From contig CM022673.1 of assembly GCA_012295275.1 (NCBI GenBank), forward strand, positions 24,180,001-24,244,000: DNA of 64,000 nt. The letters are read 5' to 3'. Made by a program: the position numbers and the translations under genes. Below the pieces are notes generated by a model, which did no database searches, was not told the DNA's origin, and saw nothing but the letters and a program-made list of their open reading frames with translations. Positions 16,772 through 63,448 of the stretch are shown one piece after another (positions within the stretch are counted from its first letter, which is position 1; each line of letters starts with the position of its first letter). Origin of the DNA: Chrysomallon squamiferum (taxonomy: Eukaryota; Animalia; Mollusca).

Positions 16772-16820
<49 letters not shown>

Positions 16821-16965
16821 GTTTTCTTTTGAGGTAGAAAAAAATATATACACATGTCAAACACAGATAAATTGTTATTCCATCTTACCAATTTCTTTCT
16901 TTAATGTACTGAAGTAACAACTCATAGGTATCAAAAAAGATGAAAGAAAAAGTAAAACAGACGTT

Positions 16966-17019
16966 TTTCCAAGGGGGTAATCGAACCCCAGCCGTCGTGG
17001 TGAGAGCGCGAAATCCTAA
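16966..17019 (-). pseudogene. Degenerate, 5'-truncated tRNA-Glu
   Basis: TTCCAAGGGGGTAATCGAACCCCAGCCGTCGTGGTGAGAGCGCGAAATCCTAA; 5' ~18 nt absent. Confidence 0.8.
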
Positions 17020-17945: not shown

Positions 17946-18529
17946 CTAGCAAATACGACCATTGCAGCACTTGTGGTATGTTGCATCATAACCTTGTTTT
18001 CCACAACATGCAGGACGATATCCTGTTATGAAGACGACGTTTCCCCCGCAGCACATTTTTAATGACGCATCGTAACTTCGTGGTCCACAACAGGCAAAAC
18101 GTATTCCTCTTCTGTCCGCAACGTTTCCCCCGCAGCACATTTGGTGCGTTACGTCATAACTTCGTGTACCACAACATCCAGAAGCTATTCCTGTCCTGGG
18201 GACAACGTTTCCAGCGCAGCACATGCTGAACCTTGGACTGTAGGTCCTCTGACCGCATACAGCTGTATTTCAACATTAACATATATATATATATATATAT
18301 CTATCGATCCATGCATTTACCTGATTCCTATCTGTGTACACGTAACAATATTAAAACAATCATCTGTAAGGGGTTCAGAAATGCATGTAGGCTGTTTATT
18401 TGTGTAATCAAAGCTATACTTCATAAGAAAAAAGAAATAAATACCTGGTGAAGACGTCGATATTAGCCAAGACTGAATTCGTGTAACTAATACAGCGACA
18501 ACAAAAGCCAAAATAGAAATATTCTTCAT
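17946..18529 (-). CDS. Galaxin-like protein G4, 133 aa; exons 18529-18445 and 18262-17946
   Basis: 85+317 nt, GT-AG intron, open frame. Confidence 0.85.
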
Positions 18530-18938
18530 TTGTTTCTTTTCTTCTTTTTTTCTTTTTTTAATGGTCTGGAGAAAAATAAATGACATTATTTATAACATTA
18601 ATAATACAATACACCAAAAAATAAATTAATATAACTGTGCAGAATCCCAGTCAATCGCAAATATTTAAAATTGTAATAGTTTAATATTACAACACTATAA
18701 TATTATTAGTTTTATAAATAAAATATAACATGAAAAGATAAAATCGGAAACATCCAAGTTCAAAATATTAAAAATTGAAGAAAGAGACACCATTGTAGGT
18801 TTATAGAAAATAGAAAGTTTTAAAGTCGTAATTCTTTTCAGTCTCTCTCTAATGTATAATCCTACATAATTCTAACAACAACAACAACAATAACAACAAT
18901 AACAATATTAATAATAATAAAATAAAAACAACAGTAAT

Positions 18939-18971
<33 letters not shown>

Positions 18972-19876
18972 AATAATAATAATTTTAAGACACATACATG
19001 CAAAAAACATATCACATCTGACAATTTTAGAATAACGATGTAAGAAAATGGATAATATAAACATTTATAAATGTTCTGTTGCTAAACTATGCAGATTAGG
19101 CAGTTTTACTTACTACTAACCTGAATACCGTGGATCTGTTATTACAGAGGTGGAGAATTCGATCGAATACTTTAACACTGTTAAAGCAAAACCAAACCAA
19201 CGTTCACCAACCGAAGATAAAGAAAACTTATTATTTTCAGTTTTCGATAGCTCATCAAATGAATCTAAAATTGTAAAACGATTAACGTTTCTCAATAAAA
19301 AATGATCTAATTTCTTTGTTAGGCACAGTCGCGAATTAGGCCAGCTTATGTCATTTATATGTTCATCTGGGTTCCAAAGTTTCACACTTTGTTAACACAT
19401 CTGAGTATTATAACGGTAATGGCCAACGGAAAATTTTCAGCACTCCAATAGGTGGACAGATTTTGCGCATCTGCACGTGCCTACACATGTACGCCATTAA
19501 ATATATCCACAATTTAGTTTGATATACAGCTATCGAATCACAAGTGTAGATATGTATCAAGCCAGTCTAATATACCTTCAGTGACGATTTTTAGTTTTAT
19601 AAATTTGTTTAAGATTTTAATTTTTATAATTTTTTTTTTTTTATACAAAGATTTTATTCTAAAAAAATAAACTATAAATTTATAATCCGATTGAAACGAT
19701 ATTCACTGAATTAATTCGTTTATGTGTACGCTTACCGTTTGATGTCTACCAACATCGTCGCGATGAATGACGAAACTGACTTCAAAACCATCAACATCAG
19801 ACATCAAACAGGTTTTTGTCTCATTTCAGAGTTCAGTTACAGCCATGTATATACATAATATACATATATATATATA

Positions 19877-19924
<48 letters not shown>

Positions 19925-20067
19925 TTTTCTTTTGAGGTAGAAAAAATATATACACATGTCAAACACAGATAAATTGTTATTCCATCTTACCAATTTCTTT
20001 CTTTAATGTACTGAAGTAACAACTCATAGGTATCAAAAAAGATGAAAGAAAAAGTAAAACAGACATT

Positions 20068-20138
20068 TTTCCAAGGGGGTAATCGAACCCCAGCCGTCGT
20101 GGTGAGAGCGCGAAATCCTAACCACTAATTATTTGGGA
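20068..20138 (-). pseudogene. Degenerate tRNA-Glu
   Basis: Shares stem mutations with the 16966 copy; A box disrupted. Confidence 0.8.
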
Positions 20139-21065
20139 ATTAAAATGAACTGAAAAAGAACTGAAAAAAGCAAACAAGGTGAATTTCGAACAGAAAAATA
20201 AATCCCTACAATTATACTGTTATAGACAGTAGACACAGTGTATATATTACACTCAAGTAACATCAAATAATTAAGAAAAAACATATTTTTATTTCAATTT
20301 AACATTGATCAAAGGTCGACAAACTTGATATGTCTATCTACAGGAGGATTCCATTTTCTAGGGCATGGATAAACGCTTGTAAATGGATTAAAAATGTTTG
20401 GGGTTATCAATATATGGTTGACATTTCTAAAACTGACATCTGTACTGTATGAATAGTTTGTGACATTATTATTGTTGGGAAATTATTCATAATCACAATT
20501 TCGTATTGTTTTAGAAAGATATGTTACATAAAATTTTAAAACTAACAATATTATGTGATGTTAATATTGCTAATAAATATCTTAAGAAGTTAATTTATTG
20601 GCACCATTTATATATTTTTGTGTATAAAACAGATAAATTATTGTTATTTATTATCAATTGCTTTCTTTAATAGATTGAAATAAGAATTGAAATGTATCGA
20701 GAAAGAAGAAGTAATTTACCTTGCATAAAATAAGTACGATACACATCGACAGTAGATAAAAATATTAACATGTTACTGTCGTGTAAAATAAGTGCATTGT
20801 AAACTCACTATTTTGCTGATATTTGCTAATGACTTCATTGACTGTATGATTCAAATTCTAGGATATTTCCTCGAATTTCGAATAGAATGATTATATTTTG
20901 TTATTAGCTGTATTTTTCTTTCTTTTCTTGCTTCGAAATTCGATGTGAATTTAAAAATGAGAACAGAATTTACAGGTAATCAATGAAAAACATTATATTT
21001 ATTAATTATATTAGCATTCTTCTATAGAACAATGCTGCAAGTTTTGAATTCGTACTTGTTTTCTT

Positions 21066-21654
21066 CTAGCAAATACGACCATTGCAGCACTTGTGGTATG
21101 TTGCATCATAACCTTGTTTTCCACAACATGCAGGACGATATCCTGTTATGAAGACGACGTTTCCCCCGCAGCACATTTTTAATGACGCATCGTAACTTCG
21201 TTGTCCACAACAGGCAAAACGTATTCCTCTTCTGTCCGCAACGTTTCCCCCGCAGCACATTTGGTGCGTTACGTCATAACTTCGTGTACCACAACATCCA
21301 GAAGCTATTCCTGTCCTGGGGACAACGTTTCCAGCGCAGCACATGCTGAACCTTGGACTGTAGGTGCTCTGACCGCATACAGCTGAATTTCAACATTAAC
21401 ATATAAATATATATATATATTATCTATCGATCCATGCATTTACCTGATTCCTATCTGTGTACACGTAACAATATTAAAACAATCATCTGTAAGGGGTTCA
21501 GAAATGCATGTAGGCTGTTTATTTGTGTAATCAAAGCTATACTTCATAGGAAAAAAGAAATAAATACCTGGTGAAGACGTCGATATTAGCCAAGACTGAA
21601 TTCGTGTAACTAATACAGCGACAACAAAAAAGCCAAAATAGAAATATTCTTCAT
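21066..21654 (-). pseudogene. Galaxin-like G5, +2 frameshift in exon 1 homopolymer (exons 21654-21568, 21382-21066)
   Basis: Exon 1 is 87 nt: A6 at 21626-21631 versus A4 in paralogs; exon 2 intact; possible sequencing error. Confidence 0.75.
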
Positions 21655-22078
21655 TTGTTTCTTTTCTTTTTTTTTCTTTTTTAATGGTCTGGAGAAAAAT
21701 AAATGACATTATTTATAACATTAATAATACAATACACCAAAAAAATAAATTAATATAACTGTGCAGAATCCCAGTCAATCGCAAATATTTAAAATTGTAA
21801 TAGTTTAATATTACAACACTATAATATTATTAGTTTTATAAATAAAATATAACATGAAAAGATAAAATCGGAAACATCCAAGTTCAAAATATTAAAAATT
21901 GAAGAAAGAGACACCATTGTAGGTTTATAGAAAATAGAAAGTTTTAAAGTCGTAATTCTTTTCAGTCTCTCTCTAATGTATAATCCTACATAATTCTAAC
22001 AACAACAACAACAATAACAACAATAACAACAACAACAATAATAATAAAAAAAATAATAACAATAAAAACAACAACAAT

Positions 22079-22111
<33 letters not shown>

Positions 22112-23034
22112 AATAATAATAATGATTTAAGACACATACATGCAAAAAACATATCACATCTGACAATTTTAGAATAACGATGTAAGAAAATGGATAATAT
22201 AAACATTTATAAATGTTCTGTTGCTAAACTATGCAGATTAGGCAGTTTTACTTACTACTAACCTGAATACCGTGGATCTGTTATTACAGAGGTGGAGAAT
22301 TCGATCGAATACTTTAACACTGTTAAAGCAAAACCAAACCAACGTTCACCAACCGAAGATAAAGAAAACTTATTATTTTCAGTTTTCGATAGCTCATCAA
22401 ATGAATCTAAAATTGTAAAACGATTAACATTTCTAAGTAAAAAAATGATCTAATTTCTTTGTTAGGCACAGTCGCGAATTAGGCCAGCTTATGACATTTA
22501 TATGTTCATCTGGGTTCCAAAGTTTCACACTTTGTTAACACATCTGAGTATTATAACGGTAATGGCCAATGGAAAATTTTCAGCACTCCAATAGGTGGAC
22601 AGATTTTGCGCATCTGCACGTGCCTACACATGTACGCCATTAAATATATCCACAATTTAGTTTGATATACAGCTATCGAATCACAAGTGTAGATATGTAT
22701 CAAGCCAGTCTAATATACCTTCACTGACGATTTTTAGTTCTATAAATTTGTTTAAGATTTTAATTTTTTATAATTTTTTTTATTTTATACAAAGATTTTA
22801 TTCTAAAAAACATAAACTATAAATTTATAATCCGATTGAAACGATATTCACTGAATTAATTCGTTTATGTGTACGCTTACCGTTTGATGTCTACCAACTC
22901 CGTCGCGATGAATGACAAAACTGACTTCAAAACCATCAACATCAGACATCAAACAGGTTTTTGTCTCATTTCAGAGTTCAGTTACAGCCATGTATATACA
23001 TAATATACATATATACATATGTGTGTGTGTGTGT

Positions 23035-23068
<34 letters not shown>

Positions 23069-23214
23069 TGTTTTCTTTTGAGGTAGAAAAAAATATATAC
23101 ACATGTCAAACACAGATAAATTGTTATTCCATCTTACCAATTTCTTTCTTTAATGTACTGAAGTAACAACTCATAGGTATCAAAAAAGATGAAAGAAAAA
23201 GTAAAACAGACGTT

Positions 23215-23283
23215 TTTCCAAGGGGGTAATCGAACCCCAGCCGTCGTGGTGAGAGCGCGAAATCCTAATCACTAGACCACTTG
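23215..23283 (-). pseudogene. Degenerate tRNA-Glu lacking the first nucleotides
   Basis: Plus strand ends CACTTGAAATTCG instead of CACTTGGGAAGTT; stem mismatches. Confidence 0.8.
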
Positions 23284-24222
23284 AAATTCGAACTGGATAT
23301 TATTTAAAACTGAAAAGGTGACAAGGTGAATACTTCGAACAGAAAAAAATAAATCCCTACAATTATACTGTTATAGACAGTAGACACAGTGTATATATTA
23401 CACTCAAGTAACATCAAATAATTAAGAAAAAAACATATTTTTATTTCACTTTAACATTGATCAAAGGTCGACAAACTTGATATGTCTATCTACAGGAGGA
23501 TTCCATTTTCTAGGGCATGGATAAACGCTTGTAAATGGATTAAAAATGTTTGGGGTTATCAATATATGGTTGACATTTCTAAAACTGACATCTGTACTGT
23601 ATGAATAGTTTGTGACATTATTATTGTTGGGAAATTATTCATAATCACAATTTCGTATTGTTTTAGAAAGATATGTTACATAAAATTTTAAAACTAACAA
23701 TATTATGTGATGTTAATATTGCTAATAAATATCTTAAGAAGTTAATTTATTGGCACCATTTATATATTTTTATGTATAAAACAGATAAATTATTGTTACT
23801 TATTATCAATTGCTTTCTTTAATAGATTGAAATAAGAATTGAAATGTATCGAGAAAGAAGAAGTAATTTACCTTGCATAAAATAAGTACGATACACATCG
23901 ACAGTAGATAAAAATATTAACATGTTCTTACTGTCGTGTAAAATAAGTGCATTGTAAACTCACTATTTTGCTGATATTTGCTAATGACTTCATTGAGTGT
24001 ATGATTCAAATTCAAATATATTTCCACGAACTTCGAATAGAATGATTATATTTTGTTATTAGCTGTGTTTATCTTTCTTTTCTTGCTTCAAAATTCGACT
24101 GTCAATTTAAAAATGAGAACACAATGTCACAGGCAATCAATGAAAAACATTATATTTATTAAATATATTAGCATTCTTCTATAGAACAATTCTGCAAGTT
24201 TTGAATTCGTACTTGTTTTCTT

Positions 24223-24816
24223 CTAGCAAATACGACCATTGCAGCACTTGTGGTATGTTGCATCATAACCTTGTTTTCCACAACATGCAGGACGATATCC
24301 TGTTATGAAGACGACGTTTCCCCCCGCAGCACATTTTTAATGACACATCGTAACTTCGTGGTCCACAACAGGCAAAACTTATTCCTGTTGTGTCCGCAAC
24401 GTTTCCTTCGCACCATATTTGGTGCGTTACGTCATAACCTCGTGTGCCACAACATCCAGAACGTATTCCTGTCCTGGGGACAACGTTTCCAGCGCAGCAC
24501 ATGCTGAACCTTGGACTGTAGGTCCTCTGACCGCATACAGCTGTATTTCAACATTAACATATATATATATATATATATATATATTATCCATTGATCCATG
24601 CATTTACCTGATTCCTATCTGTGTACACGTAACAATATTAAAACAATCATCTGTAATGGTTTCAGAAATGCGTGTAGGCTGTTTATTTGTGTAATCAAAG
24701 CTATACTTCATAAGAAAAAAGAAATAAATACCTGGTGAAGACGTCGATATTAGCCAAGACTGAATTCGTGTAACTAATACAGCGACAACAAAAGCCAAAA
24801 TAGAAATATTCTTCAT
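24223..24816 (-). pseudogene. Galaxin-like G6, +1 frameshift (C6 run at 24320-24325) and a Cys-to-Trp change (exons 24816-24732, 24540-24223)
   Basis: Exon 2 is 318 nt; QIWCEG replaces QMCCGG. Confidence 0.75.
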
Positions 24817-26107
24817 TTGTCACTTTTCTTCTTTTTTTCTTATTTTAATGGTCTGGAGAAAAATAAATGACATTATTTATAACATTAATAATACAATACA
24901 CAAAAAAATAAATTAATGGAACTGTGCAGAAGCCCAGTCAATCGGAAATATTTAAAATTGTAATAGTTTAATATTACAACACTATAATATTATTAGTTTT
25001 ATAAATAAAATATAACATTAAAAGATAAAATCGGAAACATCCAACTCCAAAATATTAAAAATTGAAGAAAGAGACGCCATTGTTGGCTAATAGAAAATAG
25101 AAAGTTTTAAAGTCGTAATTCTTTTCAGTCTCTCTCTAATCCTACGTAATACTAATACAACTAATAATAATAACAACAACAACAACAACAATAACAATAA
25201 AAATAATAATAAAATAAAAACAACAGCAATAATAACAACAACAACAACAACAACAACAATAATAATAATAATGATTTAAGACACATACATGCAAAAAACC
25301 TATCACATCTGACAATTTTAGAATAACGATGTAAGAAAATGGATAATATAAACATTTATAAATGTTCTGCTGCTAAAGTATGCAGATTAGACAGTTTTAC
25401 TTACTACTAACCTGAATACTGTGGATCTGTTATTACAGAGGTGGAGAATTCGATCGAATACTTTAATGCAGTTAAAGCAAAACCAAACCAACGTTCACCA
25501 ACCGAAGATAAAGAAAACTTATTATTTACAGTTTTCGATAGCTCATCAAATGAATCTAAAATTGTAAAACGATTAACATTTCTAAGTAAAAAAATGATCT
25601 AATTTCTTTCTTTGGCACAGTCGGGAATTAGGCCAGCTTATGTCATTTATATGTTCATCTGGGTTCCAAAGTTTCACACTTTGTTAACACATCTGAGTAT
25701 TATAACGGTAATGGCCAATAGAAAATGTACGCCATTAAATATATCCATAATTTAGTTTGATATACAGCTATCGAATCACAAGTGTAGATATGTATCTAGC
25801 CAGTCTAATATACCTTCAGTGACAACTTTTAGTTTTATAAATTTGTTTAAGATTTTAATTTTTTATAATTTTTTTCTTTTATACAAAGATTTTATTGAAA
25901 AAAATATAAACTATAAATTTATAATCCGACTGAAACGATATCCACTGAATGAATTCGTTTATGTGTACGGTTACCGTTTGATGTCTACCAACATCGTCGC
26001 GATGAATGACAAAACTGACTTCAAAACCATCAATATCAGACATACAGGTTTTTGCCTCATTTCAGAGTTCAGTTACAGCCATACGTATACATAATATACA
26101 TATATAC

Positions 26108-26199
<92 letters not shown>

Positions 26200-26352
26200 G
26201 TATATGTTCTTTTCTTTTCAGCTAGACAATATTTATACATTTGTCAAACGCAGATAAATTGTTATTCCATCTTATCAATTTCTTTCTTTAATATACTGAA
26301 GTAACGACTCAAAGGTATCGAAAAAGATGAAAGAGAAAGTAAAAGATACATT

Positions 26353-26424
26353 TTCCCAAGCGGGGAATCGAACCCCGGTCGTCGCGGTGAGAGCGCGAAA
26401 TCCTAACCACTAGAGCACTTGGGA
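26353..26424 (-). tRNA. tRNA-Glu(CTC), near intact (G10C in D stem/A box)
   Basis: Acceptor, anticodon and T stems fully paired; TGCTCTAG instead of TGGTCTAG. Confidence 0.75.
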
Positions 26425-27129
26425 AGTTACAAATACTGTTTTGGATACTGTTTAAGAACTGAAAAGCAAACACGATAAATAGTTCAAACAAAAATAAACC
26501 ACAGTAATTATATTGTTATAGACAGAGTCAAGTAAACATATTCTTATTTCACTTTAACCTTAATCACAGACCGACAAACTTGATGTGTCTACCTACAGGT
26601 GGATTCCATTTTCTAAGGCAGTGATAAACGCTTAGAACTGGATTAAAAGTTTTTTGGGTCGAAAATCAAAAAGCATGGATTATCGATATATGTTCGACAT
26701 GGTTAAAACTGAAAACTGTTGGTGTATAATTGTTCTATGTGAATAGTTTGCTGTATTATTATTGTTGGGAAATTACTGATGATCACAATTTCATATTGTT
26801 TTAAAAAGATATGTTACATAAAATTTTAAAACTAACTATATCATATGATGTTAATATTGTTAATAAATAGATAAATTTAAATATATTACTAAATTAATTT
26901 ACTGACACTAAATTTTAGAAGACTGGCACCATTTTTATATTATGTATTGATTAATGTAAAAAAATATATTATGTGACATTAGAAACATAAATGTTCTTTT
27001 CCTTAGAAGTAGAACAAAATATATTCATTTCTCAAACACAGATCATTTATTCTTACATCTTATCAATTTCTTTCTTTAATATATTGAAGTAACAATTCAA
27101 AAGTATCGAATAAGAAGAATTTTGTTTTT

Positions 27130-31632: not shown

Positions 31633-34600
31633 AAACCAAGCTCATTCCATTTTTCTTCACAAGTTGGTGCTTTAAAGTTGTTTAAAATTAAAATAGAATA
31701 AATTATTTTAACTGTAAATTTACTGACATTTATCATTTCATTATTCTGAAACAAAAATAAATCTTTATTAGATGTTAATTTTTTAGCATTTCTGTTAATA
31801 GAACTTTTCCATTCATCTGGAAGTGATTTCTTAATAACATTGTAAGCTATATAAATTTGGTTTTTGGATAATTCTGGAGATTTTTCATGAATAATTTCTA
31901 CAATAGCTGTAAAAGGAAGAAAACCTGATATTACTTCATAAGCAATATCAGCCACTTTGACTATTCCACTTTTTATAAAAGAACTAAATAATAATAATTT
32001 GTTTTTATATTTAATGAATGGATTTTGAAAAAGTGGCTGAAATAATATTTCGTCTGTATCAAGTGGGAAATTACCTTCTCCATTGTTAACAGTGTCCCAA
32101 GCTGATAACATTTCAGCATAAAAAGGATTGATAACTTTTAAAGCTTCTTTATTGTATACTATTTTAAAAATGTCACAATTTAGATTCATATTCATATATT
32201 TTTCAAGAAATATTGACATTGTATATTTCCATACATTTTTAAAATTATTATCAAAATATTTCTTTAACATTTTTATTCGAAAAGCCATTTTCTTTAATGA
32301 AATATCTTGAATATTTAGTCCACCCGACATTTTATTTCCAATTATTGTTGAATATTTTATTAAATGCGTTTTTCCTTCCCACATAAATTTATAAAATAAT
32401 TTATGAATTTCATTTTCTACCCAATTCGGTACATTTATTGCGCTAATGATATACCACAGTCTAGATGTTAATAAAGTATTCCATACTTCAGCTTTTTCGT
32501 GTAAAGTGAGTTTTCTTTGACTCCATAAGTTAATTAAATTAGACATTTTATCTAATTTATTTTTCCAGTTCAATCTTTCACATAATGGTTTATTTGGTCC
32601 TAAATATATACCTAGAATTTTAACATAGTTTTTATTTATTGATATTGGAATGTTAAAAGATAAGTTTTCAATCATGGTTTTACCAAGATAAAGTACTTCT
32701 GACTTATCTACATTGACTTTTGCCCCTGTAGCACTGCAATACATATTTATTGTATTAAAAACATTTTCTACTGACTGAGCATCACAGACAGTTACTGTAG
32801 TATCATCTGCATGCTGAAATAATAAAGAATTAAGTTCATTTGTTATTCTAATTCCATTCATGCTATGTCTTTTTTTAATTAAATTATTTAAGGGTTCAGC
32901 TACAATAACATAAAGCATCATTGATATTGGACATCCTTGTCTAACCCCTCTTGTAATATTGAAAAAAGGTGTTAAATGTCCATTAATTTTTACACAACTT
33001 TTTATATTATTATATAGTATTTTAATCCACTTCATAAAATTATCACCAAAATTGAATTTTTTCAAAACTTTTAAAATAAAACTATGTGATACTCTATCAA
33101 ATGCTTTCTCTTGATCTATTTTAACTATATACCCTTCTGTATTATTTAACTCGACAATATCTATAATATCTCTTACTGACATAATATTGTCAGCAATATC
33201 TCTTCCTTTACACAACAGGTTTGTTCTGATGAAATAATAGTTGACATTACTTGTTTAAGACGATTTGCAAAAACTTTAGCAATAATTTTATAATCTACAT
33301 TTAAAAGGCTGATAGGTCTGAAATTTTTTAGGTCTGCTTTATCTCCTTTTTTCTTGTAAAACAAACTAATTACTCCTTTTTTCATACTACGTGACAACAT
33401 TTCTTCTTTCTGAATTGACATAACTACTTTATGAAAGAAATGTTTTAAATTTTCCCGGAGTTTAACATAAAATTCTACTGTTAGACCGTCCAAACCAGGT
33501 GATTTATTTCTATTCATTTCTTTTAAAGCTTCAGTTAATTCTTCAATTGTAATGTCTTTCTCACAGTTTTCACTTTCAGATTCCTTTAGTTTATTTGTTA
33601 TTAAATTTATTATTTCTTCCTGTTTAATAATATCTACATTTTCTTGTGTAAATAATTTTGAATAAAAGTCATAAGCATATTGTAATATATCTTCCGTTCT
33701 TCTTGTTAATCCATTTACTGTCTTTAGCTCTTTAATAGAATTTGATTCTTGTTTTGATTTTTCTAAACTGAGAAAAAGCGTGGTATTTCTATCCATATCT
33801 AGATTCCAATGAGTTTTAGATCTTAAAATAGCACCATTACATTTAGATCTCTCAATTAATTTTAATTTTTCTTCTAAAATTTGTATGTTACTCAAATCAT
33901 GATGCTTATTTACAGCTAGTTTAGCATATTCTCGTTTCAAAGCATTTTGTATATTATAATATTTTTCGTTATCTGATTTTCTCTTTTTTATTGCAAAATT
34001 TCTTGCACATGTTTTCATTTTATATTTTAAGTTGTCCCACCAAACACTAGGCTCAGTCTGTAACAAAGGACACTCAGAAGCTTTATTAATAACTTCAATA
34101 ATAGCTTTACAAAAACTTTCATCTTTCAACAATTCATTATTAAAGATCCAAATACCTTGACCTCTCTCTACATGAGAAAAATCTATTTTAAGTGATAAAA
34201 AATTGTGATCACTAACCGAGGTATAGGATATGTATACATTACTTATAAACTGTAATAAATTTCTAGAAATTAAGAATAAATCAATTCTTGACTGTTTTAT
34301 AGTGTTTTCAACTATTTGAGATCTAGTAAACTGCCTTTTATCTGGATTTCTGTGTCGCCAAATATCAACTAAATTATAATTATAAATAACTGACTGTAAT
34401 TCATTACTACTTTTCATATTGAAAGTTTTATTATTAATGCCTAAATCTAAGTTAGGATTTAAAATTTCATTAAAATCTCCTGCCATTATTGTATTTTTTA
34501 AATACACAAATTTACATAATCCTTTAAAAAATAAAATTCTTTCTTCAATATTATTTGGTGCATATACATTTATAAAACTGTATTCTTCTTCATCTATTTT

Positions 34601-34921
34601 CGTATTAATTTTTAAAATCCTGCCTTCAGTGTCGCAACTATTAAATGTAAACTTATAAGGACATTCTTTTGATACCAGTATTGCTACACCCCTTCTTTTC
34701 TTATTTGGACAATTATTATAAAATATATTTCCTTCCCATAAATGTTTATATCTCTCAATGAAGTCATTATCCCAAAATGTTTCCTGTAGGAAAATAATAT
34801 TTGCATGTTTACTTTTAATAGTTGCAAAAACTGAATTTAATTTCTCAATATCTCTCAGTCCGTTTACATTTATAGACAAAATCATAATTAGAATTAGAAA
34901 ATTTATAAAACTATTATTCAT
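31633..34921 (-). pseudogene. Tx1 ORF2 (AP endonuclease + reverse transcriptase), one frameshift at ~33208, C-terminus truncated
   Basis: APE motifs SINVNGL, LQET, NVYAPN, GDFN, SRID, SDH; RT motifs KSPGLDG, RPISLLNVDYK, DQEKAFDRV, GVRQGCP, HADD; adding one A to GTAAAGGA restores CCVKGRDI. Confidence 0.92.
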
Positions 34922-34933
34922 TTTTAAAATGTT

Positions 34934-36103
34934 CTATATCTTGTCTATATTCCCCTCACAATGCTCGTTGATCACCCTGTCAAAACTTTCTCTCACACTT
35001 TTCATGCGCGCTGCATGTCTCTTTTTTTGTTTTCTATTTTCTACCAAGCTCCACAGTTTTTCTTCTGATGGACGCTTGATCAATCTCGTTCGACGCGTTG
35101 TTTTACTCTGCTTACTATTTTCTGCTTCGATGGTTTCAGCTTCCTTGTTAGTAATTTTCACTGTGGTGTTTTTATCAGGGTTTTTTTCTTGTTTTTCTCC
35201 ATTTTCCGATTTTTGTTTTTCCTTATTGATTTTCATTTCTGTTGTATTTATCCTCTGGATACTTTCTGCTTCACTTTCTTTTTTCTCCTTTGATTTTACA
35301 TTATCTGTAGTATATTCCATACCATCACTGTCACTGTCGCTGTTTTTATGTTCGTCGCTGTCATACTCTGTCCAACACTCACATTCATCCTCTTTGTTTC
35401 CACACTTTTCACACAGAAATATGTTCGGGCAGTTTCTAGCAAAATGTCCTTTTTGTTTACAGTTATGACACCTTATATTTGGACAGTCTTTCAACAAATG
35501 ATTATCCGCCACACAGTTGTAACAGACTTTTATTTGATTGTCATGTAATACTCTAAAATATTTTATTCCTTCGTAAGTCCGAAATTTCATTGAGTACGGT
35601 AAACTTTTTATTCCGGGTGGAAATTTCACTCTCACATATCTTGTTCCATCTGCAATTTTTGTCCCTTTGTATAGTCTTCTATAAATAGGTGATAAAATTT
35701 CTACTTTCATTTCTTTCAATTTCTCTTCAATTTCTTCATCTTCAATGTAGGCAGGCAAGTGTAAAAAGGAAACGACTACAGTTTCAGATTTTAAAATTCT
35801 CGCCTTTATTTTTAGACCTTTCAATTCTGTTTCATCAATTTCCGTAATCATTCTCGCTTGTATAAAATCTTCTAGTGTTATTTCATAAGAGTCGGATTCT
35901 TTCGGTACACAAGCTTTTATCACATCACCCACCTGGCCACTTACAAAATCTATCATATCGCCTGCTGAAATGTTCTTGTTATCTTCTACATTTACAATCA
36001 CGGTGCATTCTTTTTTAAAAATATTTTTTCTCAACACCTCTTTTTTTAAATTCATATCTTTCATTTTATCTTCATACTTTTCAGATTCTTCTGCCCAACA
36101 CAT
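34934..36103 (-). CDS. Tx1 ORF1 protein (gag-like, zinc knuckles), 389 aa from MCWAEE
   Basis: CYNCVADNHLLKDC and CHNCKQKGHFARNC (CX2CX4HX4C); DGTRYVRVKF motif; ATG position conserved in the second copy (MSWAEE). Confidence 0.88.
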   Translation of the reverse strand: MCWAEESEKYEDKMKDMNLKKEVLRKNIFKKECTVIVNVEDNKNISAGDMIDFVSGQVGDVIKACVPKESDSYEITLEDFIQARMITEIDETELKGLKIKARILKSETVVVSFLHLPAYIEDEEIEEKLKEMKVEILSPIYRRLYKGTKIADGTRYVRVKFPPGIKSLPYSMKFRTYEGIKYFRVLHDNQIKVCYNCVADNHLLKDCPNIRCHNCKQKGHFARNCPNIFLCEKCGNKEDECECWTEYDSDEHKNSDSDSDGMEYTTDNVKSKEKKESEAESIQRINTTEMKINKEKQKSENGEKQEKNPDKNTTVKITNKEAETIEAENSKQSKTTRRTRLIKRPSEEKLWSLVENRKQKKRHAARMKSVRESFDRVINEHCEGNIDKI

Positions 36104-36405
36104 AATACTTAGTTTACAACAAGAAGCGAGAGCCGATGTGAAACGCGTCCACACCCGACGCCAACCTAACCGGAAGTCTAACATCACAAATTATTAAGAA
36201 AGAAACATATTGTTATTTCAGTTTAACGTTGATCACAGGTCGAGAAACTTGATATGACTACCTACAGGTGGATTCTGTTTTCTAGGGCATTGATAAACGC
36301 TTATAACTGGATTAAAAGCTTTTCGGATTATCAATATTGAATATATGGTTCACATGTTTAAAACTCAAATCTGTTGGTATGTCATATCTAAATTAATAAA
36401 TGTAA

Positions 36406-36442
36406 TGAGAGCCCGAAATCCTAACCACTAGACCACTTGGGA
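36406..36442 (-). pseudogene. tRNA-Glu 5' half (nt 1-37)
   Basis: TGAGAGCCCGAAATCCTAACCACTAGACCACTTGGGA with B-type upstream flank; 3' half missing. Confidence 0.85.
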
Positions 36443-38652: not shown

Positions 38653-38704
38653 TTCCCAAACGGGGAATCGAACCCCGGCCGTCGCGGTGAGAGCGCGAAA
38701 TCCT
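38653..38704 (-). pseudogene. 3' part (nt 21-72) of the tRNA-Glu interrupted by Tx1
   Basis: Directly follows the element poly(A); begins with the TSD AGGATTTCGCG. Confidence 0.93.
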
Positions 38705-40956
38705 TTTTTTTTAAATCTTTATTAGTATAATCACCAGTTGTACACAATTAAAATAACATTAAAACTGTAAATAACAATAATAAAAACTGTTTCCTCTCAC
38801 ACACTCAGTCACACTCACATGCATGCATACTTATTTATTCGGAATATTCATATATATATACAGTATTTTATAGTATTAATTCTTTTATCCATTTCCATGA
38901 TATATGTATATTGATTATTTGTAGCTTTCCAAAGGATATTTGAAAATAAGTATGTCATCTTTTAGTTCTAGGAAAATATTGTTCTTAACATATTTGTTAA
39001 TAAAAATTGAAAGTTTGTTTTGAATACGATATTGATTTAGAATGATTTTAAAGCACTGATACATATAATTTCTAAAAAAATGTATTATATTGATATTTGT
39101 TCCTTTTATTTGAGCTATTAGACGCCTTTTGAACACTGTTATTCTATAAATTGAAAGAATAATGTTAATAAATTCTATTGTACTATTTTCAGTTTTGACA
39201 TAACATCCAAATATTAATAATCTTTTTAATTGTTCTAGGGAAAACCCTGTTTTCTTAAATATATAAATACATATTTCATGAAAGATTGATATTAATTCCT
39301 TCAATTCTTCACAATACAAAAATAAATGGCACAAATCTTCATCATCCTTTAAACACACTGGACATACACTAGATGAGATTTTGCCATATTTATATAATTT
39401 GTTATATGTATATATTATATGATGAACTGTTTTAAAATCTAAGTCTATAAATTCAGTAAATTTATCACTATAGTGTATCCATTTCCAAACTGGTCTCCAG
39501 AATATATTAAAACCAAGCTCATTCCATTTTTCTTCACAAGTTGGTGCTTTAAAGTTTTTTAATACTAAAATAGAATAAATTATTTTAACTGTAAATTTAC
39601 TGACATTTATCATTTCATTATTCTGAAACAAAAATAAATCTTTATTAGATGTTAATTTTTTAGCATTTCTGTTAATAGAACTTTTCCATTCATCTGGAAG
39701 TGATTTCTTAATAACATTGTAAGCTATATAAATTTGGTTTTTGGATAATTCTGGAGATTTTTCATGAATAATTTCTACAATAGCTGTAAAAGGAAGAAAA
39801 CCTGATATTACTTCATAAGCAATATCAGCCACTTTGACTATTCCACTTTTTATAAAAGAACTAAATAATAATAATTTGTTTTTATATTTAATGAATGGAT
39901 TTTGAAAAAGTGGCTGAAACAATATTTCGTCTGTATCAAGTGGGAAATTACGTTCTCCATTGTTAACATAGTCCCAAGCTGATAACATTTCAGCATAAAA
40001 AGGATTGATAACTTTTAAAGCTTCTTTACTGTATACTATTTTAAAAATGTCATAATTTAGATTCATATTCATATATTTTTCAAGAAATATCATCACTGTC
40101 ACTGTCGCTGTTTTTTTGTTCGTCGCTGTCATACTCTGTCCAACACTCACATTCATCCTCTTTGTTTCCACACTTTTCACACAGAAATATGTTCGGGCAG
40201 TTTCTAGCAAAATGTCCTTTTTGTTTACAGTTATGTCACCTTATATTTGGACAGTCTTTCAACAAATGATTATCCGCCATACAGTTGTAACAGACTTTTA
40301 TTTGATTGTCATGTAATACTCTAAAATATTTTATTCCTTCGTAAGTCCGAAATTTCATTGAGTATGGTAAACTTTTTATTCCGGGTGGAAATTTCTCTCT
40401 CACATATCTTGTTCCATCTGCAATTTTTGTCCCTTTGTATAGTTTTCTATAAATTGGTGATAGAATTTCTATTTCCATTTGTTTCAATTTTTCTTCAATT
40501 TCTTCATCTTCAATGTAGGCAGGCAAGTGCAAAAAGGAAACTACTACAGTTTCAGATTTCAAAATTCTCGCCTTTATTTTTAGACCTTTCAGTTCTGTTT
40601 CATCAATTTCCGTAATCATTCTCGCTTGTATAATATCTTCTAGTGTTATTTCATAAGAGTCGGATTCTTTCGGTACGCACGCTTTTATCACATCACCCAC
40701 CTGGCCACTTACAAAATCTATCATGTCGCCTGCTGAAATTTTCTTGTTATCTTCTACATTTACAATCACGGTGCATTCTTTTTTAAAAACATTTTTTCTC
40801 ATTACTTCTTTTTTTAAATTCATGTCTTTGATCTTTTCCTCGTAATTTTCAGATTCTTCCGCCCAAGACATAACACTTAGTTTACAACGAAACCTTTCCG
40901 AAGCGAGAGCCGATGTGAAACGCGTCCACACTCGACGCCACCATAACCGGAAGTCT
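38705..40956 (-). mobile_element. Tx1 copy with both ends intact and a ~3.1-kb internal deletion, inserted in tRNA-Glu
   Basis: TSD CGCGAAATCCT at 38694-38704 and 40957-40967; AATAAA (38718-38723) plus A8-9 tail; ORF1 N-terminus (ATG 40871, TGA at 40236) joined at ~40090 to the ORF2 C-terminus with CPVC...HLFLYC zinc finger. Confidence 0.95.
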
Positions 40957-40987
40957 CGCGAAATCCTAACCACTAGTCCACTTGGGA
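40957..40987 (-). pseudogene. 5' part (nt 1-31) of the tRNA-Glu interrupted by Tx1
   Basis: TCCCAAGTGGACTAGTGGTTAGGATTTCGCG immediately followed by the element 5' end AGACTTCC. Confidence 0.93.
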
Positions 40988-43949: not shown

Positions 43950-45077
43950 ACAGTTGACTGATATAGACAAACAGACGAAGAGACAAGTAGATAATAGTTA
44001 TGGAAATATACAAAAGTTATTATATGTATTTTGAAATACAACTGTATGCGACCACACAAGCTACAATTCAACATTTAGCTTTGATTACACAAATAAACAG
44101 CCTACATGCATTTCTGAACACTTCCAGGTGATTGTTTTAATAGTTTTATGTGTACAGATAGGAATCAGGTAAATGCATAGATCGATAGATAATATATCTA
44201 TAACAATGATTTCTGCGTATAAATGTATGTGTGTGTATGTATGTATGTATAACAGATTAACTGATATAGACAAACAGAGATTTAAGCAGATAATTGTAAT
44301 GAAGATATGTAGAAGTTCTTATATTAATTTTGAAACACAGCTGTATGCGGTTACAACAGCTACAATCCAAGCTTCAGCATGTGCTGCAGTGGAAACGTTG
44401 TCCCTAGAAGAGGCATAACTCCTGCATGTTGTGGAAGGCAAGGCTATGATGATGCAACCGACATGTGCTGCGGGGGAAACGTTGTCCCTAGAAGAGGCAT
44501 AACTCCTGCATGTTGTGGAAGGCAAGGCTATGATGATGCAACCGACATGTGTTGCTGGAGAAACGTTGTCCCCAGAAGAGGCATAACTCCTGCATGTTGT
44601 GGAAGGCAAGGCTATGATGATGCAACCGACATGTGCTGCGGGGGACACGTTGTCCCCAGAAGAGGCATAACTCCTGCATGTTGTGGAAGGCAAGGCTATG
44701 ATGATGCAACCGACATGTGCTGTTGGAGAAACGTTGTCCCCAGAAGAGGAATAAGTCCTGCATGTTGTGGAAGGCAAGGTTATGATGATGCAACCGACAT
44801 GTGCTGCGGGGGAAACGTTGTCCCCAGAAGAGGAATAAGTCCTGCATGTTGTGGAAGGCAAGGTTATGATGATGCAACCGACATGTGCTGTTGGAGAAAC
44901 GTTGTCCCCAGAAGAGGAATAAGTCCTGCATGTTGTGGAAGGCAAGGTTATGATGATGCAACCGACATGTGCTGCGGGGGAAACGTTGTCCGCAGAAGTG
45001 GAATAAGTCCTGCATGTTGTGGAACACAAAGTTATGATGCAGCATTCGACAGCTGCTGCAATGGCCGTATTTGCTAG
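43728..45077 (+). pseudogene. Galaxin-like G8 (subfamily B), eight 28-aa repeats; exons 43728-43814 and 44341-45077; exon 1 is 1 nt short
   Basis: Exon 2 fully open (232 aa from MCC); T4 at 43751-43754 versus T5 in G7 shifts the frame to TAA; may be an intact gene with a homopolymer error. Confidence 0.75.
44379..45050 (+). repeat. Coding minisatellite, 8 x 84 bp
   Basis: MCCxxNVVPRRGI(T/S)PACCGRQGYDDATD repeated. Confidence 0.95.
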
Positions 45078-47060: not shown

Positions 47061-47260
47061 NNNNNNNNNNNNNNNNNNNNNNNNNNNNNNNNNNNNNNNN
47101 NNNNNNNNNNNNNNNNNNNNNNNNNNNNNNNNNNNNNNNNNNNNNNNNNNNNNNNNNNNNNNNNNNNNNNNNNNNNNNNNNNNNNNNNNNNNNNNNNNNN
47201 NNNNNNNNNNNNNNNNNNNNNNNNNNNNNNNNNNNNNNNNNNNNNNNNNNNNNNNNNNNN
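47061..47260. other. Assembly gap (200 N)
   Basis: Run of N. Confidence 1.
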
Positions 47261-56222: not shown

Positions 56223-56946
56223 AACGTTTATTTTGGTTTTTCCTTCTTTCTTTCGATACCTTTGAATTGTTATTTCAATATATTAAAGAAAGAAATTGAT
56301 AAGATGGTATAACAATTTACCTGTGTTTCACAAATGTATAAATATTGTCTAGCTGAAAAGTAAAGAACATATACATATATATATATTTATATACACACAA
56401 ACAGAATGCCTTAGAAAATAAAAATATAAAAATGGTGCCAATGTTCTAAAGTTTAGTTTCAAAAAATTAATTTAGTAACATATTTAGTTTTACTTTTTTC
56501 TATTTATTAACAATATTAACATCACATAATAATGTTAGTTTTAAAATTTTATGTAATATATCTTTCTAAAACAATACGAAATTGTGATTATCAATAATAA
56601 TGCAACAAACTATTCACATAGAACAGTTATACACCAACAGATTTCAGTTTTAAACATGTGAACCATATATTGATAACCCCAAAAACTTTGAATCCAGTTA
56701 TAAGCGTTTATCAATGCCCTAGAAAATAGAATCCAACTGTAGGTAGTCATATCAAGTTTCTCGACCTGTGATCAATGTTAAACTGAAATAACAATATGTT
56801 TCTTTCTTAATTATTTGTGATGTTACTTGAGTGTAATATATACACTCTGTCTATAACAATATAATTGTTGTGATTTATTTTTCTGTTCGAATTATTCACC
56901 TTGTTTGGTTCAATTGTTAAACAGTATCCAGACGGTATTTGTAACT

Positions 56947-57018
56947 TCCCAAGTGGTCTAGTGGTTAGGATTTCGCGCTCTCACCGCGACGGCCGGGGTT
57001 CGATTCCCCGTTTGGGAA
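56947..57018 (+). tRNA. tRNA-Glu(CTC), intact
   Basis: Identical to the A type. Confidence 0.95.
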
Positions 57019-58057
57019 AACGTTTATTTTGGTTTTTCCTTCTTTCTTTCGATACTTTTGAATTTTTATTTCAATATATTAAAGAAAGAAATTGATAAGA
57101 TGGTATAACAATTTATCTGAGTTTGACAAATGTATAAATATCGTCTAGCTGAAAAGAAAAGAACATATACATATATATATATTTATATACACACAAACAC
57201 ACACACACACACACATAGGTATATATGTATATTATGTATGCGCATGGCTGTAACTGAACTCTGAAATGAGGCAAAATCCTGTATGATGTCTGATGTTGAT
57301 GGTTATGAAGTCAGTTTTGTCATTCATCGCGACGATGTTGGTAGACATCAAACGGTAACCGTACACATAAACGAATTCATTCAGTGGATATCGTTTCAGT
57401 CGGATTATAAATTTATAGTTCATGTTTTTTCGAATAAAATCTTTGTATAAAATAAAAAAAAATAAAAAATTAAACAAATTTATAAAATTAAAAATTGTCA
57501 CTGAAGGTATATTAGACTGGCTAGATACTTATCTACACTTGTGATTCGGTAGCTGTATATCAAACTAAATTATGGATATATTTAATGGCGTCCATTTTCC
57601 ATTGGCCATTACCGTTATAATACTCAGATGTGTTAACAAAGTGTGAAACTTTGGAACCCAGATGAACATATAAATGTCATAAGCTGGCCTAATTTGCGAC
57701 TGTGCCTAACAAAGAAATTAAATCATTTTTTATTGAGAAACGTTATTCGTTTTACAATTTTAGATTCATTTGATGAGCTATCGAAAACTGTAAATAATAA
57801 GTTTTCTTTATCTTCCGTTGGTGAACGTTGGTTTGGTTTTCCTTTAACTGCATTAAAGTATTCGATCGAATTCTCCACCTCTGTAATAACAGATCCACGG
57901 TATTCAGGTTAGTAGTAAGTAAAACTGTCTAATCTGCATACTTTAGCAACAGAACATTTATAAATATTTATATTATCCATTTTCTTACATCGTCATTCTC
58001 AAATTGTCAGATGTTTTTTGCATGTATCTGTTTTAAATCATTATTATTATTATTATT

Positions 58058-58102
<45 letters not shown>

Positions 58103-58524
58103 ATTGCTGTTGTTTTTATTTTATTATTATTATTATTGTTATTGTTGTTGTTGTTGTTGTTATTATTATTAGTTGTATTAGTATTACGTAGGATTATACA
58201 TCAGAGAGAGACTGAAAAGAATTACGACTTTAAAACTTTCTATTTTCTATTAGCCAAAAATGGCGTCTCTTTCATCAATTTTTAATATTTTGGACTTGGA
58301 TGTTTCCGATTTTATCTTTTCATGTTATATTTTATTTATAAAACTAATAATATTATAGTGTTGTAATATTAAACTATTACAATTTTAAATATTTGCGACT
58401 GACTGGGATTCTGCACAGTTATGTTAATTTATTTCTTTGTGTATTGTATTATTAATGTTATAAATAATGTCATTTATTTTTCTCCAGACCATTAAAATAA
58501 GAAAAAAAAGAAGAAAAGAAACAA

Positions 58525-59117
58525 ATGAACAACATTTCTCTTTTGGCTTTTGTTATCGCTGTATTAGTAACACGAATTCAGTCTTGGCTAATATCGACGT
58601 CTTCACCAGGTATTTATTTCTTTTTTCTTATGAAGTATAGCTTTGATTACACAAATAAACAGCCTACACACATTTCTGAACCCCTTACCGATGATTGTTT
58701 TAATATTGTTACGTGTACACAGATAGGAATCAGGTAAATGCATGGATCGATAGATAATATATATATATATATATATATATATGTTAATGTTGAAATACAG
58801 CTGTATGCGGTCAGAGCACCTACAATCCAAGGTACAGCATGTGGTGCGCTGGAAACGTTGTCCCCAGGACAGGAATAACTTCTGCATGTTGTGGCAAACG
58901 AAGTTATGACGGAACGTACCAAATATGCTGCGGGGGAAACGTTGCGGAAACAACAGGAATAAGTTTTGCCTGTTGTGGACCATGAAGTTACGATGCGTCA
59001 TTAAAAATGTGCTGCGGGGGAAACGTCTTCTTCATAAGAGGATATCGTCCTGCATGTTGTGGAAAGCAAGGTTATGATGCAACATACCACAAGTGCTGCA
59101 ATGGTCGTATTTGCTAG
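58525..59117 (+). pseudogene. Galaxin-like G9, premature stop (exons 58525-58609, 58801-59117)
   Basis: CGA-to-TGA at 58983-58985 (CpG transition) and MWC replacing MCC; exon lengths normal. Confidence 0.85.
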
Positions 59118-60058
59118 AAGAAGACAAGTACGAATTCAAAACTTGCAGAATTGTTCTATAGAAGAATGCTAATATATTAAAATAAGTATAATGTTTTTCA
59201 TTGATTGCCTGTGACATTCTGTTCTCATTTTCAAATTGACAGTCGAATTTTGAAGCAAGAAAAGAAAGAAAAACACAGCTAATAACAAAATATAATTATT
59301 CTATTCGAAGTTCGTGGAAATATATTTGAATTTGAATCATACAGTCAATGACGTCATTAGCAAATATCAGCAAAATAGTGAGTTTACAATGCACTTATTT
59401 TACAACACAGTAAGAACATGTTAATATTTTTATATACTGTCGATGTGTATATTACTTATCTTATGCAAGGTAAACTACTTCTTCTTTCTCGATACATTTC
59501 AATTCTTATTTCAATCTATTAAAGAAAGCAATTGATAATAAATAACAATAATTTATCTGTTTTATACACAAAAATATATAAATGGTGCCAATAAATTAAC
59601 TTCTTAAGATATTTATTAGCAATATTAACATCACGTAATATTGTTAGTTTTAAAATTTTATGTAACATATCTTTCTAAAACAATACGAAATTGTGATTAT
59701 GAATAATTTCCCAACAATAATAATGTCACAAACTATTCATACAGTACAGATGTCAGTTTTAGAAATGTCAACCATATACTGATAACCCCAAACACTTTTA
59801 GTCCATTTCCAAGCGTTTATCCATGCCCTAGAAAATGGAATCCTCCTGTAGATAGACATATCAAGTTTGTCGACCTTTGATCAATGTTAAAGTGAAATAA
59901 AAATAAGTTTTTTTCTTAATAATTTGATGTTACTTGAGTGTAATATATACACTGTGTCTACTGTCTATAACAGTATAATTGTAGTGATTTATTTTTCTGT
60001 TCGAAGTATTCACCTTGTTTGCTTTTCAGTTCTTAAATAATATCCAGAGCACGAATTT

Positions 60059-60122
60059 CAAGTGGTCTAGTGATTAGGATTTCTCGCTCTCACCACGACG
60101 GCTGGGGTTCGATTACCCCCTT
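60059..60122 (+). pseudogene. Degenerate tRNA-Glu
   Basis: Mirror of the 23215 copy (CGAATTTCAAGTGG start, GTGATTAGG); 3' end lost. Confidence 0.8.
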
Positions 60123-60261
60123 TGTTTTACTTTTTCTTTCATCTTTTTTGATACCTATGAGTTGTTACTTCAGTATATTAAAGAAAGAAATTGGTAAGAT
60201 GGAATAACAATTTATCTGTGTTTGACATGTGTATATATTTTTTTCTACCTCAAAAGAAAAC

Positions 60262-60310
<49 letters not shown>

Positions 60311-61634
60311 GTATATATGTATATTATGTATATACATGGCTGTAACTGAACTCTGAAATGAGACAAAAACCTGTTTGATGTCTGATGTTGATGGTTTTGA
60401 AATCAGTTTCGTCATTCATCGCCACGATGTTGGTGGATATCAAACGCTAATCGTACACATAAACGAATTCATTCAGTGGATATCGTTTCAATCGGATTAT
60501 AAATTTATAGTTTATGTTTTTTGGAATAAAATCTTTGTATAAAAGAAAAAAATTATAAAAAATTAAAAAATTAAACAAATTTATAAAACTAAAAATCGTC
60601 ACTGAAGGTATGTTAGACTGGCTTGATACATATCTACACTTGTGATTCGATAGCTGTATATCAAACTAAATTGTGGACATATTTAATGGCGTACATGTGT
60701 AGGCACGTGCAGATGCGCAAAATTTGTCCACCTATTGGAGTGCTGAAAATTTTCCATTGGCCATTACCGTTATAATACTCAGATGTGTTAACAAAGTGGT
60801 TTTGAACCCAGTTGAATATATAAATGTCATAAGCTGGACTAATTCGCGACTGTGCCTAAGAAAGAAATTAGATCATTTTTTACTTAGAAATGTTAATCGT
60901 TTTACAATTTTAGATTCATTTGATGAGCTATCGAAAACTGAAAAGAATAAGTTTTCTTTTTCTTCGGTTGGTGAACGTTGGTTTGGTTTTGCTTTAACAG
61001 TGTTAAAGTATTCGATCGAATTCTCCACCTCTGTAATAACAGATCCACGGTATTCAGGTTAGTAGTAAGTAAAACTGTCTAATCTGCATAGTTTAGCAAC
61101 AGAACATTTATAAATGTTTATATTATCCATTTTCTTACCTCGTTATTCTAAAATTGTCAGATGTGATATGTTTTTTGCATGTATTTGTTTTAAATCATTA
61201 TTATTATTGTTGTTGTTGTTGTTGTTGTTGTTATTACTGTTGTTTTTGTTTTATTATTATTAATATTGTTATTGTTGTTATTGTTGTTGCTGTTGTTAGT
61301 ATTATGTAGGATTATACATTATAGAGAGACTGAAAAGGATTACGACTTTAAAACTTTCTATTTTCTATAAACCTACAATGGTGTCTCTTTCTTCAATTTT
61401 TAATATTTTGGACTTGGATGTTTCCGATTTTATCTTTTCATGTTATATTTTATTTATAAAACTAATAATATTATAGTGTTGTAATATTAAACTATTACAA
61501 TTTTAAATATTTGCGATTGACTGGGATTCTGCACAGTTATGTTAATTTATTTCTTTGTGTATTGTATTATTAATGTTATAAATAATGTCATTTATTTTTC
61601 TCCAGACCATTAAAAAAAAGAAGAAAAGAAACAA

Positions 61635-62223
61635 ATGAAGAATATTTCTCTTTTGGCTTTTGTTGTCGCTGTATTAGTAACACGAATTCAGTCTTGGCTA
61701 ATATCGACGTCTTCACCAGGTATTTATTTGTTTTTTCTTATGAAGTATAGCTTTGATTACACAAATAAACAGCCTACACGCATTTCTGAACCCTTACAGA
61801 TGATTGTTTTAATATTGTTACGTGTACACAGATAGGAATCAGGTAAATGCATGGATCGATAGATATATATATATATATATATATATATGTTAATGTTGAA
61901 ATACAGCTGTATGCGGTCAGAGCACCTACAGTCCAAGGTTCAGCATGTGCTGCGCTGGAAACGTTGTCCCCAGGACAGGAATAGCTTCTGGATGTTGTGG
62001 TACACGAAGTTATGACGTAACGCACCAAATGTGCTGCGGGGGAAACGTTGCGAACAGAAGAGGAATACGTTTTGCCTGTTGTGGACCACGAAGTTACGAT
62101 GCGTCATTAAAAATGTGCTGCGGGGGAAACGTCGTCTTCATAACAGGATATCGTCCTGCATGTTGTGGAAAGCAAGGTTATGATGCAACATACCACAAGT
62201 GCTGCAATGGTCGTATTTGCTAG
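61635..62223 (+). CDS. Galaxin-like protein G10, 133 aa; exons 61635-61719 and 61907-62223
   Basis: 85+317 nt, CAG|GTATTT and TACAG|CT, open frame, AATAAA at 62286. Confidence 0.87.
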
Positions 62224-63168: not shown

Positions 63169-63227
63169 TCCCAAGTGGACTAGTGGTTAGGATTTCGCGG
63201 GCCGGGGTTCGATTACCCGCTTGGGAA
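63169..63227 (+). pseudogene. tRNA-Glu with nt 32-44 (anticodon loop and 3' stem) deleted
   Basis: ...GGATTTCGCG|GGCCGGGG...; CTCTCACCGCGAC missing; followed by the upstream region of an 11th galaxin-like unit running off the window. Confidence 0.88.
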
Positions 63228-63395
63228 AATGTTTGATTTACTTTTTCTTTCATCTTTTTCGATACCTATGAGTCGTTACTTCAGTATATTAAAGAAAGAA
63301 ATTGATAAGATGGAATAACAATTTATCTGTGTTTGACAAATGTATAAATATTGTCTAGCTAAAAAGAAAAGAACATATACATATATATATATATT

Positions 63396-63448
<53 letters not shown>

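Follow-up and report, generated by a model that had tools for sequence, protein, structure and literature searches.

We found that a lineage of Tx1-type LINEs probably targets A21, immediately downstream of the A box, in tRNA gene arrays of several isotypes and not of Glu alone; the endonuclease likely nicks the template strand, and target-primed reverse transcription then follows. The same 3′ junction was observed in tRNA genes for Glu, Asp, Tyr, and Thr. The Glu case lies in the window, the 64,000-nt stretch of Chrysomallon squamiferum DNA analyzed here (CM022673.1, positions 24,180,001 to 24,244,000). This window contains a tRNA-Glu array in which ARAGORN identified 16 genes, with further fragments present, and a 2,252-bp copy of a Tx1-type LINE interrupts one tRNA-Glu(CTC) gene on the minus strand, co-oriented with the tRNA. 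This focal copy is a dead, internally deleted element inside the tRNA gene.

The insertion can be followed along the minus strand. Nucleotides 1-31 of the tRNA-Glu(CTC) gene (40987-40957), which carry one change, T12A, are followed by the element body (40956-38705) and then by tRNA nt 21-72 (38704-38653), which contain the B box and are identical to an intact tRNA-Glu gene at 52/52 positions. Near the 3′ end of the element, an AATAAA (38723-38718) precedes a short tail of nine A (38712-38704), the last of which is A21 of the tRNA. The target duplication AGGATTTCGCG flanks the element, with its 5′ copy forming the last 11 nt of the first tRNA portion (40967-40957) and its 3′ copy at 38704-38694; it is 11 bp long counting the A, or 10 bp if that A belongs to the tail. 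An earlier, sequence-only reading of this DNA had described a true insertion into tRNA-Glu with a target duplication, co-oriented with the tRNA and with AATAAA plus poly(A) before nt 21, and this description stands. Both the upstream and the downstream flank of the element resemble spacers of the tRNA-Glu array, which implies that a genomic tRNA gene was the target. One could instead imagine that no tRNA gene was hit and that a tRNA-LINE chimera arose by template switching and was retrocopied. This is highly improbable, and the flanks largely refute it: behind the poly(A) come the tRNA 3′ half and the downstream spacer of the array, more than 100 nt of upstream spacer of the array type remain before the 5′ half, and the duplication is internal to the tRNA.

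The focal copy (all parts on the minus strand) consists of an 85-nt 5′ UTR (40872-40956), which begins at the same nucleotide as that of a second copy in the window, an ORF1 (40236-40871) that stops after 211 aa, an internal deletion junction (40087-40090), the C-terminal third of ORF2 (38915-40086), and a 210-nt 3′ UTR (38705-38914) that includes the AATAAA and the short A tail. The ORF2 remnant corresponds approximately to residues 904-1281 of the relative P0001 and gives a weak zf-RVT match, a domain that scores above the cut-off in P0001. Over its first 870 bp the focal copy is 94.4% identical to the second copy, whereas the 581 bp that come next match the far end of that copy at 98.5%. 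Since these two parts match separated parts of the second copy, about 3.1 kb is missing from the focal copy, namely the rest of ORF1, the APE, and the RT, leaving ORF1 joined directly to the last third of ORF2. A full-length element would be about 5.35 kb (hand sum). Microhomology at the deletion junction is short and imperfect only, and the middle of the copy was likely lost during or after insertion. The sequence-only reading had missed both the deletion and the early stop in ORF1, and the APE that it invoked is absent from this copy. A spreading non-autonomous family of internally deleted elements was also considered and is unsupported: host-species contigs stop at 40087/40090 and continue as full-length sequence, and no piece among the 32 matches listed bridges the junction.

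The second, longer copy (31633-36179, minus strand) lies in the same tRNA-Glu array, 2.5 kb from the focal copy. It is broken, with one frameshift near 33200 and its 3′ end lost, and it contains a full ORF1, APE, and RT. ORF1 of Tx1 elements carries CCHC zinc knuckles instead of the ORF1 domain of animal L1. The 389-aa ORF1 of the second copy has zf-CCHC matches in two stretches and no match to an L1 ORF1 family, and its ORF2 matches PF03372 (APE, catalytic motifs intact) and PF00078 (RT). Its closest relatives of solved structure are L1 ORF2p, and the APE of the element scored 90.1 bits against 2V0R, an L1/Tx1L loop chimera, and 80.6 bits against L1-EN. Together with the poly(A) tail and the duplicated target site of the focal copy, these features agree with the Tx1-type identity proposed earlier. 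The 5′ UTR of the second copy measures 76 nt by hand count; the sequence-only reading had given about 75-85 nt.

Relatives were retrieved by protein similarity alone, using a 24-protein alignment as query, and comprised the best 80 of 552 confirmed metagenome loci, from 29 of the 64 parts of the collection, plus 3 loci on genome contigs. Among these 83 loci, 27 end before the end of ORF2, 32 are without a tail call, and 24 have one (22 with flank behind it). In all three close relatives with a readable 3′ flank (40-66% ORF2 identity), poly(A) is followed by tRNA nt 22 onward, a junction (A21|22) just past the A box. The junction of L081 (66% ORF2 identity) lies in tRNA-Asp, within an array of 35 tRNA-Asp genes; that of L001 (40%) lies in an intron-bearing tRNA-Tyr and that of L002 (40%) in tRNA-Thr, both isotypes being read by eye from the 3′ half. 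For the L002 flank, the Rfam score as tRNA fell slightly below threshold. L001 and L002 are closely related to each other. Once a 72-nt gene is hit, the chance that two independent lineages match the site to within one base and in strand is ∼(2/144)^2, or 2e-4, by hand calculation. Three other close loci, L003, L082, and L083, are without a 3′ end. A B box was found behind the tail in none of the 19 out-of-clade tail calls with flank, and some tail calls of distant relatives are likely spurious. Several distant relatives (28-33% ORF2 identity) have U2-, U5-, or 5S-like flanks instead, which indicates that the tail and flank method recovers other Tx1 targets. Named protein relatives come from Mytilus, at ∼41-42% identity; Mytilus proteins among the relatives include CAG2235175.1, CAG2242715.1, and CAG2243758.1.

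Several further observations were made in these collections. L081 (CBDCGX010000035.1), L082, and L083 are animal LINEs on contigs filed in bacterial MAGs; these contigs are likely host contamination, since that of L081 carries 35 tRNA-Asp genes, and the three MAGs yielded no additional readable 3′ junction. No relative turned up in viral contigs. The pattern of poly(A) plus B box occurred in seven stretches of viral contigs, and all six listed (leaving aside L105, on the same contig as L100) were unrelated to LINEs. Distant Tx1-type elements at L006, L016, L017, and L075 adjoin U1, U2, or U5 snRNA genes, with L006 having a full U2 upstream and U1 downstream.

At the 5′ end, the joins vary: they fall at nt 31 in the focal copy, at nt 10 in the truncated L081 copy, at nt 36-38 of tRNA-Lys in L001, at about nt 31 of a tRNA-Val-like half on a host-species contig, and, in the second copy of the window, in array spacer, some 123 nt before a tRNA position and without a tRNA half. 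L001 combines a half of tRNA-Lys, 5′ of the element, with tRNA-Tyr on the 3′ side, and is likely a collapsed contig. The sequence-only reading had placed nicks near nt 20/21 and 31/32. The first of these is supported as the first-strand site by the three relatives, whereas the second is not fixed.

Nine sequencing runs of the host species (35-54% of sampled words) contributed contigs that represent several subfamilies, with full-length ORFs beyond the deletion point. Their 5′ flanks, from four DNA runs and one RNA run, are mixed. DNA contigs have several non-tRNA flanks at element 5′ ends, one at depth 639.5 (run X1), and an RNA-library contig joins a related 5′ end to the tRNA-Val-like half (isotype by eye). 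The junction between tRNA nt 31 and the element is bridged by none of the 32 matches listed, and one 3′ junction of the family was seen in the host, the focal one in tRNA-Glu. These mixed 5′ flanks are the main result against strict targeting, though L081 also has an imprecise 5′ join. They could mean that the element has a weak preference only and that the tRNA insertion is one of many sites, chosen because it is conspicuous; the 5′ end of the second copy, away from the site, points the same way. However, three of three relatives, which were retrieved without regard to their flanks, sit at the same nucleotide, and the 5′ join of L081 is imprecise even though its 3′ junction is exact, so we consider a mere preference improbable. 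A high-depth X1 contig carries a 33-nt flank at the element 5′ end (window 40955) that is absent from the window and may represent a second target or a longer 5′ UTR.

In runs X1, X2, and X6, contigs that lack the element have nt 31 directly followed by nt 45, as in the array unit at 63169, and over 54 nt the X1 contig of equal depth is identical to the focal upstream side. Because these contigs lack the element and one of them matches the focal upstream side, it is likely that the element is absent at the focal locus in these samples or that the focal locus is recombinant. In the latter case, two array units would have recombined, and the duplication or the deletion would not stem from one insertion event. 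This would agree with the flanks, since the upstream one reaches no more than 81% identity with any of 20 other array units and the downstream one up to 98%, and with the differing identity of the 5′ and 3′ parts to the second copy (94.4% and 98.5%). On the other hand, edge units of arrays can diverge upstream without any element. We regard recombination as possible, if on balance unlikely; a crossover in the tRNA 5′ half would leave the junction between nt 31 and the element unchanged, and the assignment of the site stands regardless.

Broken tRNA-Glu units occur elsewhere in the array. The unit at 63169-63227 (plus strand) carries T12A, lacks nt 32-44, and resumes at nt 45, while those at 5377-5407, 5569-5592, and 36406-36442 end at nt 31, 24, and 37, respectively. 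Two of the broken units, those interrupted at nt 31, have the same breakpoint as the 5′ junction of the element. These breaks, in the units at 5377 and 63199, may be scars; we did not take them as evidence because nt 27-43 form the anticodon hairpin with repeated CGCG.

The targets of the relatives also bear on whether each family is confined to one isotype, this one to Glu and its sister to Asp, so that the shared position would reflect ancestry with read-out after nt 21. Such an arrangement would resemble Dada transposons, whose families are described as isotype-specific (PMC3706591, in part). It is in keeping with the Glu identity of the only 3′ junction seen for the focal family, with the occurrence of the L081 family in the Asp array only, and with an APE loop whose sequence differs between the Glu/Asp pair and the Tyr/Thr pair. 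Against it are the L001 contig, with its Lys and Tyr halves, and the host contig with the tRNA-Val-like half at about nt 31 (by eye). We judge confinement to one isotype unlikely. The tRNA-Glu-specific family of the sequence-only reading is not supported: members of the lineage use this site in genes for Asp, Tyr, and Thr, L001 has a Lys half, and related 5′ ends in host contigs adjoin tRNA-Val-like and non-tRNA sequences.

For targeting of A21 across isotypes, we propose that the APE of ORF2p would nick the strand opposite nt 20/21 (or 21/22), and that the freed DNA end would prime on the poly(A) tail, from where the element RNA would be copied. The 5′ end would then be joined imprecisely, giving the 10-11-bp duplication at the focal copy and loss of target sequence in other copies. 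What is read may be chiefly the GG-T-(T/G)-A stretch that closes the A box. This motif, at nt 17-21, is common to intact Glu, Asp, and Lys genes, to which the comparison extends, and the bases after nt 22 differ. Because nt 17-21 agree among these genes while later bases differ, the simplest explanation is that the A-box end is what the element reads. Alternatively, the element could be tethered to the Pol III machinery through TFIIIC or TFIIIB, with a loosely specific APE cutting an accessible bond by the A box. The site indeed keeps its distance from the A box although the targets diverge over nt 22-31, and L003 has a 5′ flank that resembles 5S rRNA, another Pol III gene, and ends near nt 31. 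Yet the common A-box end explains the site without tethering, and the Tx1L endonuclease, in work by Christensen from 2000, is said to be target-specific by itself, which counts against it. TRE5-A and Ty3 are described as using TFIIIB (PMC5006619), but in the available parts of the sources tethered elements land in windows beside tRNA genes and not at one internal base (PMC3706591, PMC5006619). Tethering is, in our view, quite doubtful.

To place the lineage, we used a midpoint-rooted tree of 40 rows chosen from the 138 of a first tree, in which the U2-, U5-, and 5S-like-flanked relatives served as stand-ins for named Tx1 families. The window copy, L081, L082, L001, L002, and L003 fall in one 21-row group (support 99/95). 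Its four tRNA-flanked rows (window copy, L081, L001, and L002) form two separate pairs and not an exclusive clade, and the target is readable for only 5 of the 21 rows, the fifth being L003. Targeting of tRNA genes may have had one origin or more than one within the group. L003, the closest relative with a flank other than tRNA (36% identity), has a 5S rRNA-like 5′ half that ends near nt 31 directly before the element (L003:70-100); this flank was seen by eye and has no Rfam score. The U2-flanked loci form a separate tree group, and by target the focal element is not Keno; its 3′ junction inside tRNA-Glu is neither in the tRNA-Leu spacer of Dewa nor in the 5S rRNA of Mutsu. The APE hairpin loop of the 21-row group has 11 residues, two more than in the U2-, U5-, and 5S-like-flanked outgroup rows, and its alignment with the grafted Tx1L loop of PDB 2V0R is ungapped. 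This loop is described as sitting in the minor groove and affecting specificity, although it does not alone set it (PMC1950540, in part). A wider proposal can be put forward only tentatively, and as a whole we think it unlikely: an old, uncatalogued Tx1 lineage of marine invertebrates would have settled on a single structural position within Pol III genes, namely A21 next to the A box of tRNA genes whatever their isotype, while a sister targets 5S rRNA genes; it would find its site via the A box or bound TFIIIC, and would have had its 11-residue APE loop retuned between isotypes.

The element likely uses a promoter in its own 5′ UTR, which starts with an ETS-like motif typical of internal LINE promoters. 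The sequence-only reading had suggested reliance on the host tRNA flank and A box. Transcription from the host tRNA promoter is unlikely because the only B box lies 2.3 kb away and T-runs would stop Pol III, and because the second copy, although it has no tRNA half, begins with the same nucleotide. The first T5 run occurs at nt 199, and the two copies have 10 and 15 runs of at least five T. No B-box match was found in the first 300 nt of the element, even allowing two mismatches; together with the T-runs, this argues against Pol III read-through. The element is covered by contigs from RNA libraries, which do not show strand, start, or level; one of these contigs ends in additional A's.

The lineage shares with the sequence-specific Tx1 families Keno (U2 snRNA), Mutsu (5S rRNA), Dewa (tRNA-Leu spacer), and Tx1L an ORF1 with CCHC knuckles, an ORF2 with APE, RT, and zinc finger, a poly(A) tail, and a probably fixed 3′ junction in a multicopy RNA gene with co-orientation; the 11-residue APE loop is shared with Tx1L. 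The targets described for Tx1 elements in the portions of the literature at hand are U2, U5, 5S, satellites, microsatellites, transposons, and the tRNA-Leu spacer (PMC4494074, PMC3706591, PMC5340908). Unlike these, the lineage here inserts inside tRNA coding sequence at A21 in several isotypes, whereas Dewa is in the spacer. NeSL-related LINEs also target tRNA genes, as described in part of PMC4640811: LIN25_SM (tRNA-Glu), LIN15_SM (tRNA-Arg), and NeSL-1_TV (tRNA-Pro). By our own count from that source, the 3′ junction of LIN15_SM is ∼2-3 nt from the A21 site, in at least two Arg isoacceptors, while LIN25_SM joins tRNA-Glu near nt 5, another site. The likeness to these elements is convergence and not kinship. 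The NeSL-related group encodes a restriction-like endonuclease, not an APE. Dada DNA transposons are described as inserting at or near tRNA A boxes, with different families in different isotypes; unlike the lineage here, they use a DDE transposase and a 6-7-bp duplication and have no RNA intermediate (PMC3706591, PMC8869645, both in part). TRE5/TRE3, which are APE LINEs of Dictyostelium, and the LTR element Ty3 are also tied to tRNA genes, but the accessible text has them land at a distance via Pol III factors and leave the tRNA intact (PMC5006619).

Targeting of tRNA genes by NeSL-type LINEs and by Dada is therefore known already, and a Tx1-type lineage inside tRNA genes would be the new element here. 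The accessible portions of the literature (including PMC5035012, PMC10294476, and PMC12719977) mention no Tx1 family inside tRNA genes; this search did not extend to Repbase entries. It is quite possible that the family is already catalogued in Repbase or the literature, and for C. gigas 14 L1-Tx1 entries are reported as catalogued (PMC10294476, in part). A lineage that retains one tRNA nucleotide at 40-66% protein identity, although the bases behind it vary, provides matched endonuclease-target pairs (Glu, Asp, Tyr/Lys, and Thr), in which APE specificity by sequence, DNA shape, or Pol III tethering is directly testable. That a NeSL-related LINE and Dada insert within a few bases of the same spot suggests that the A-box edge is a recurrent vulnerable site. 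If a lineage fixed on A21 in any isotype does exist, it would offer a natural series for APE target change and a landing system for tRNA arrays.

The remainder of the window has features of its own. In the array unit at 13832-13905 the anticodon has switched to TTC. A tandem unit of ∼3.1 kb (7396-26869 and 56501-64000) carries a decaying tRNA-Glu and sequence resembling the galaxin-like repeat ORF found at 44334-45077 (PF24748, E 1.5e-62). The cluster is organized as inverted duplications, and a 200-base assembly gap (47061-47260) lies within a duplicated segment.
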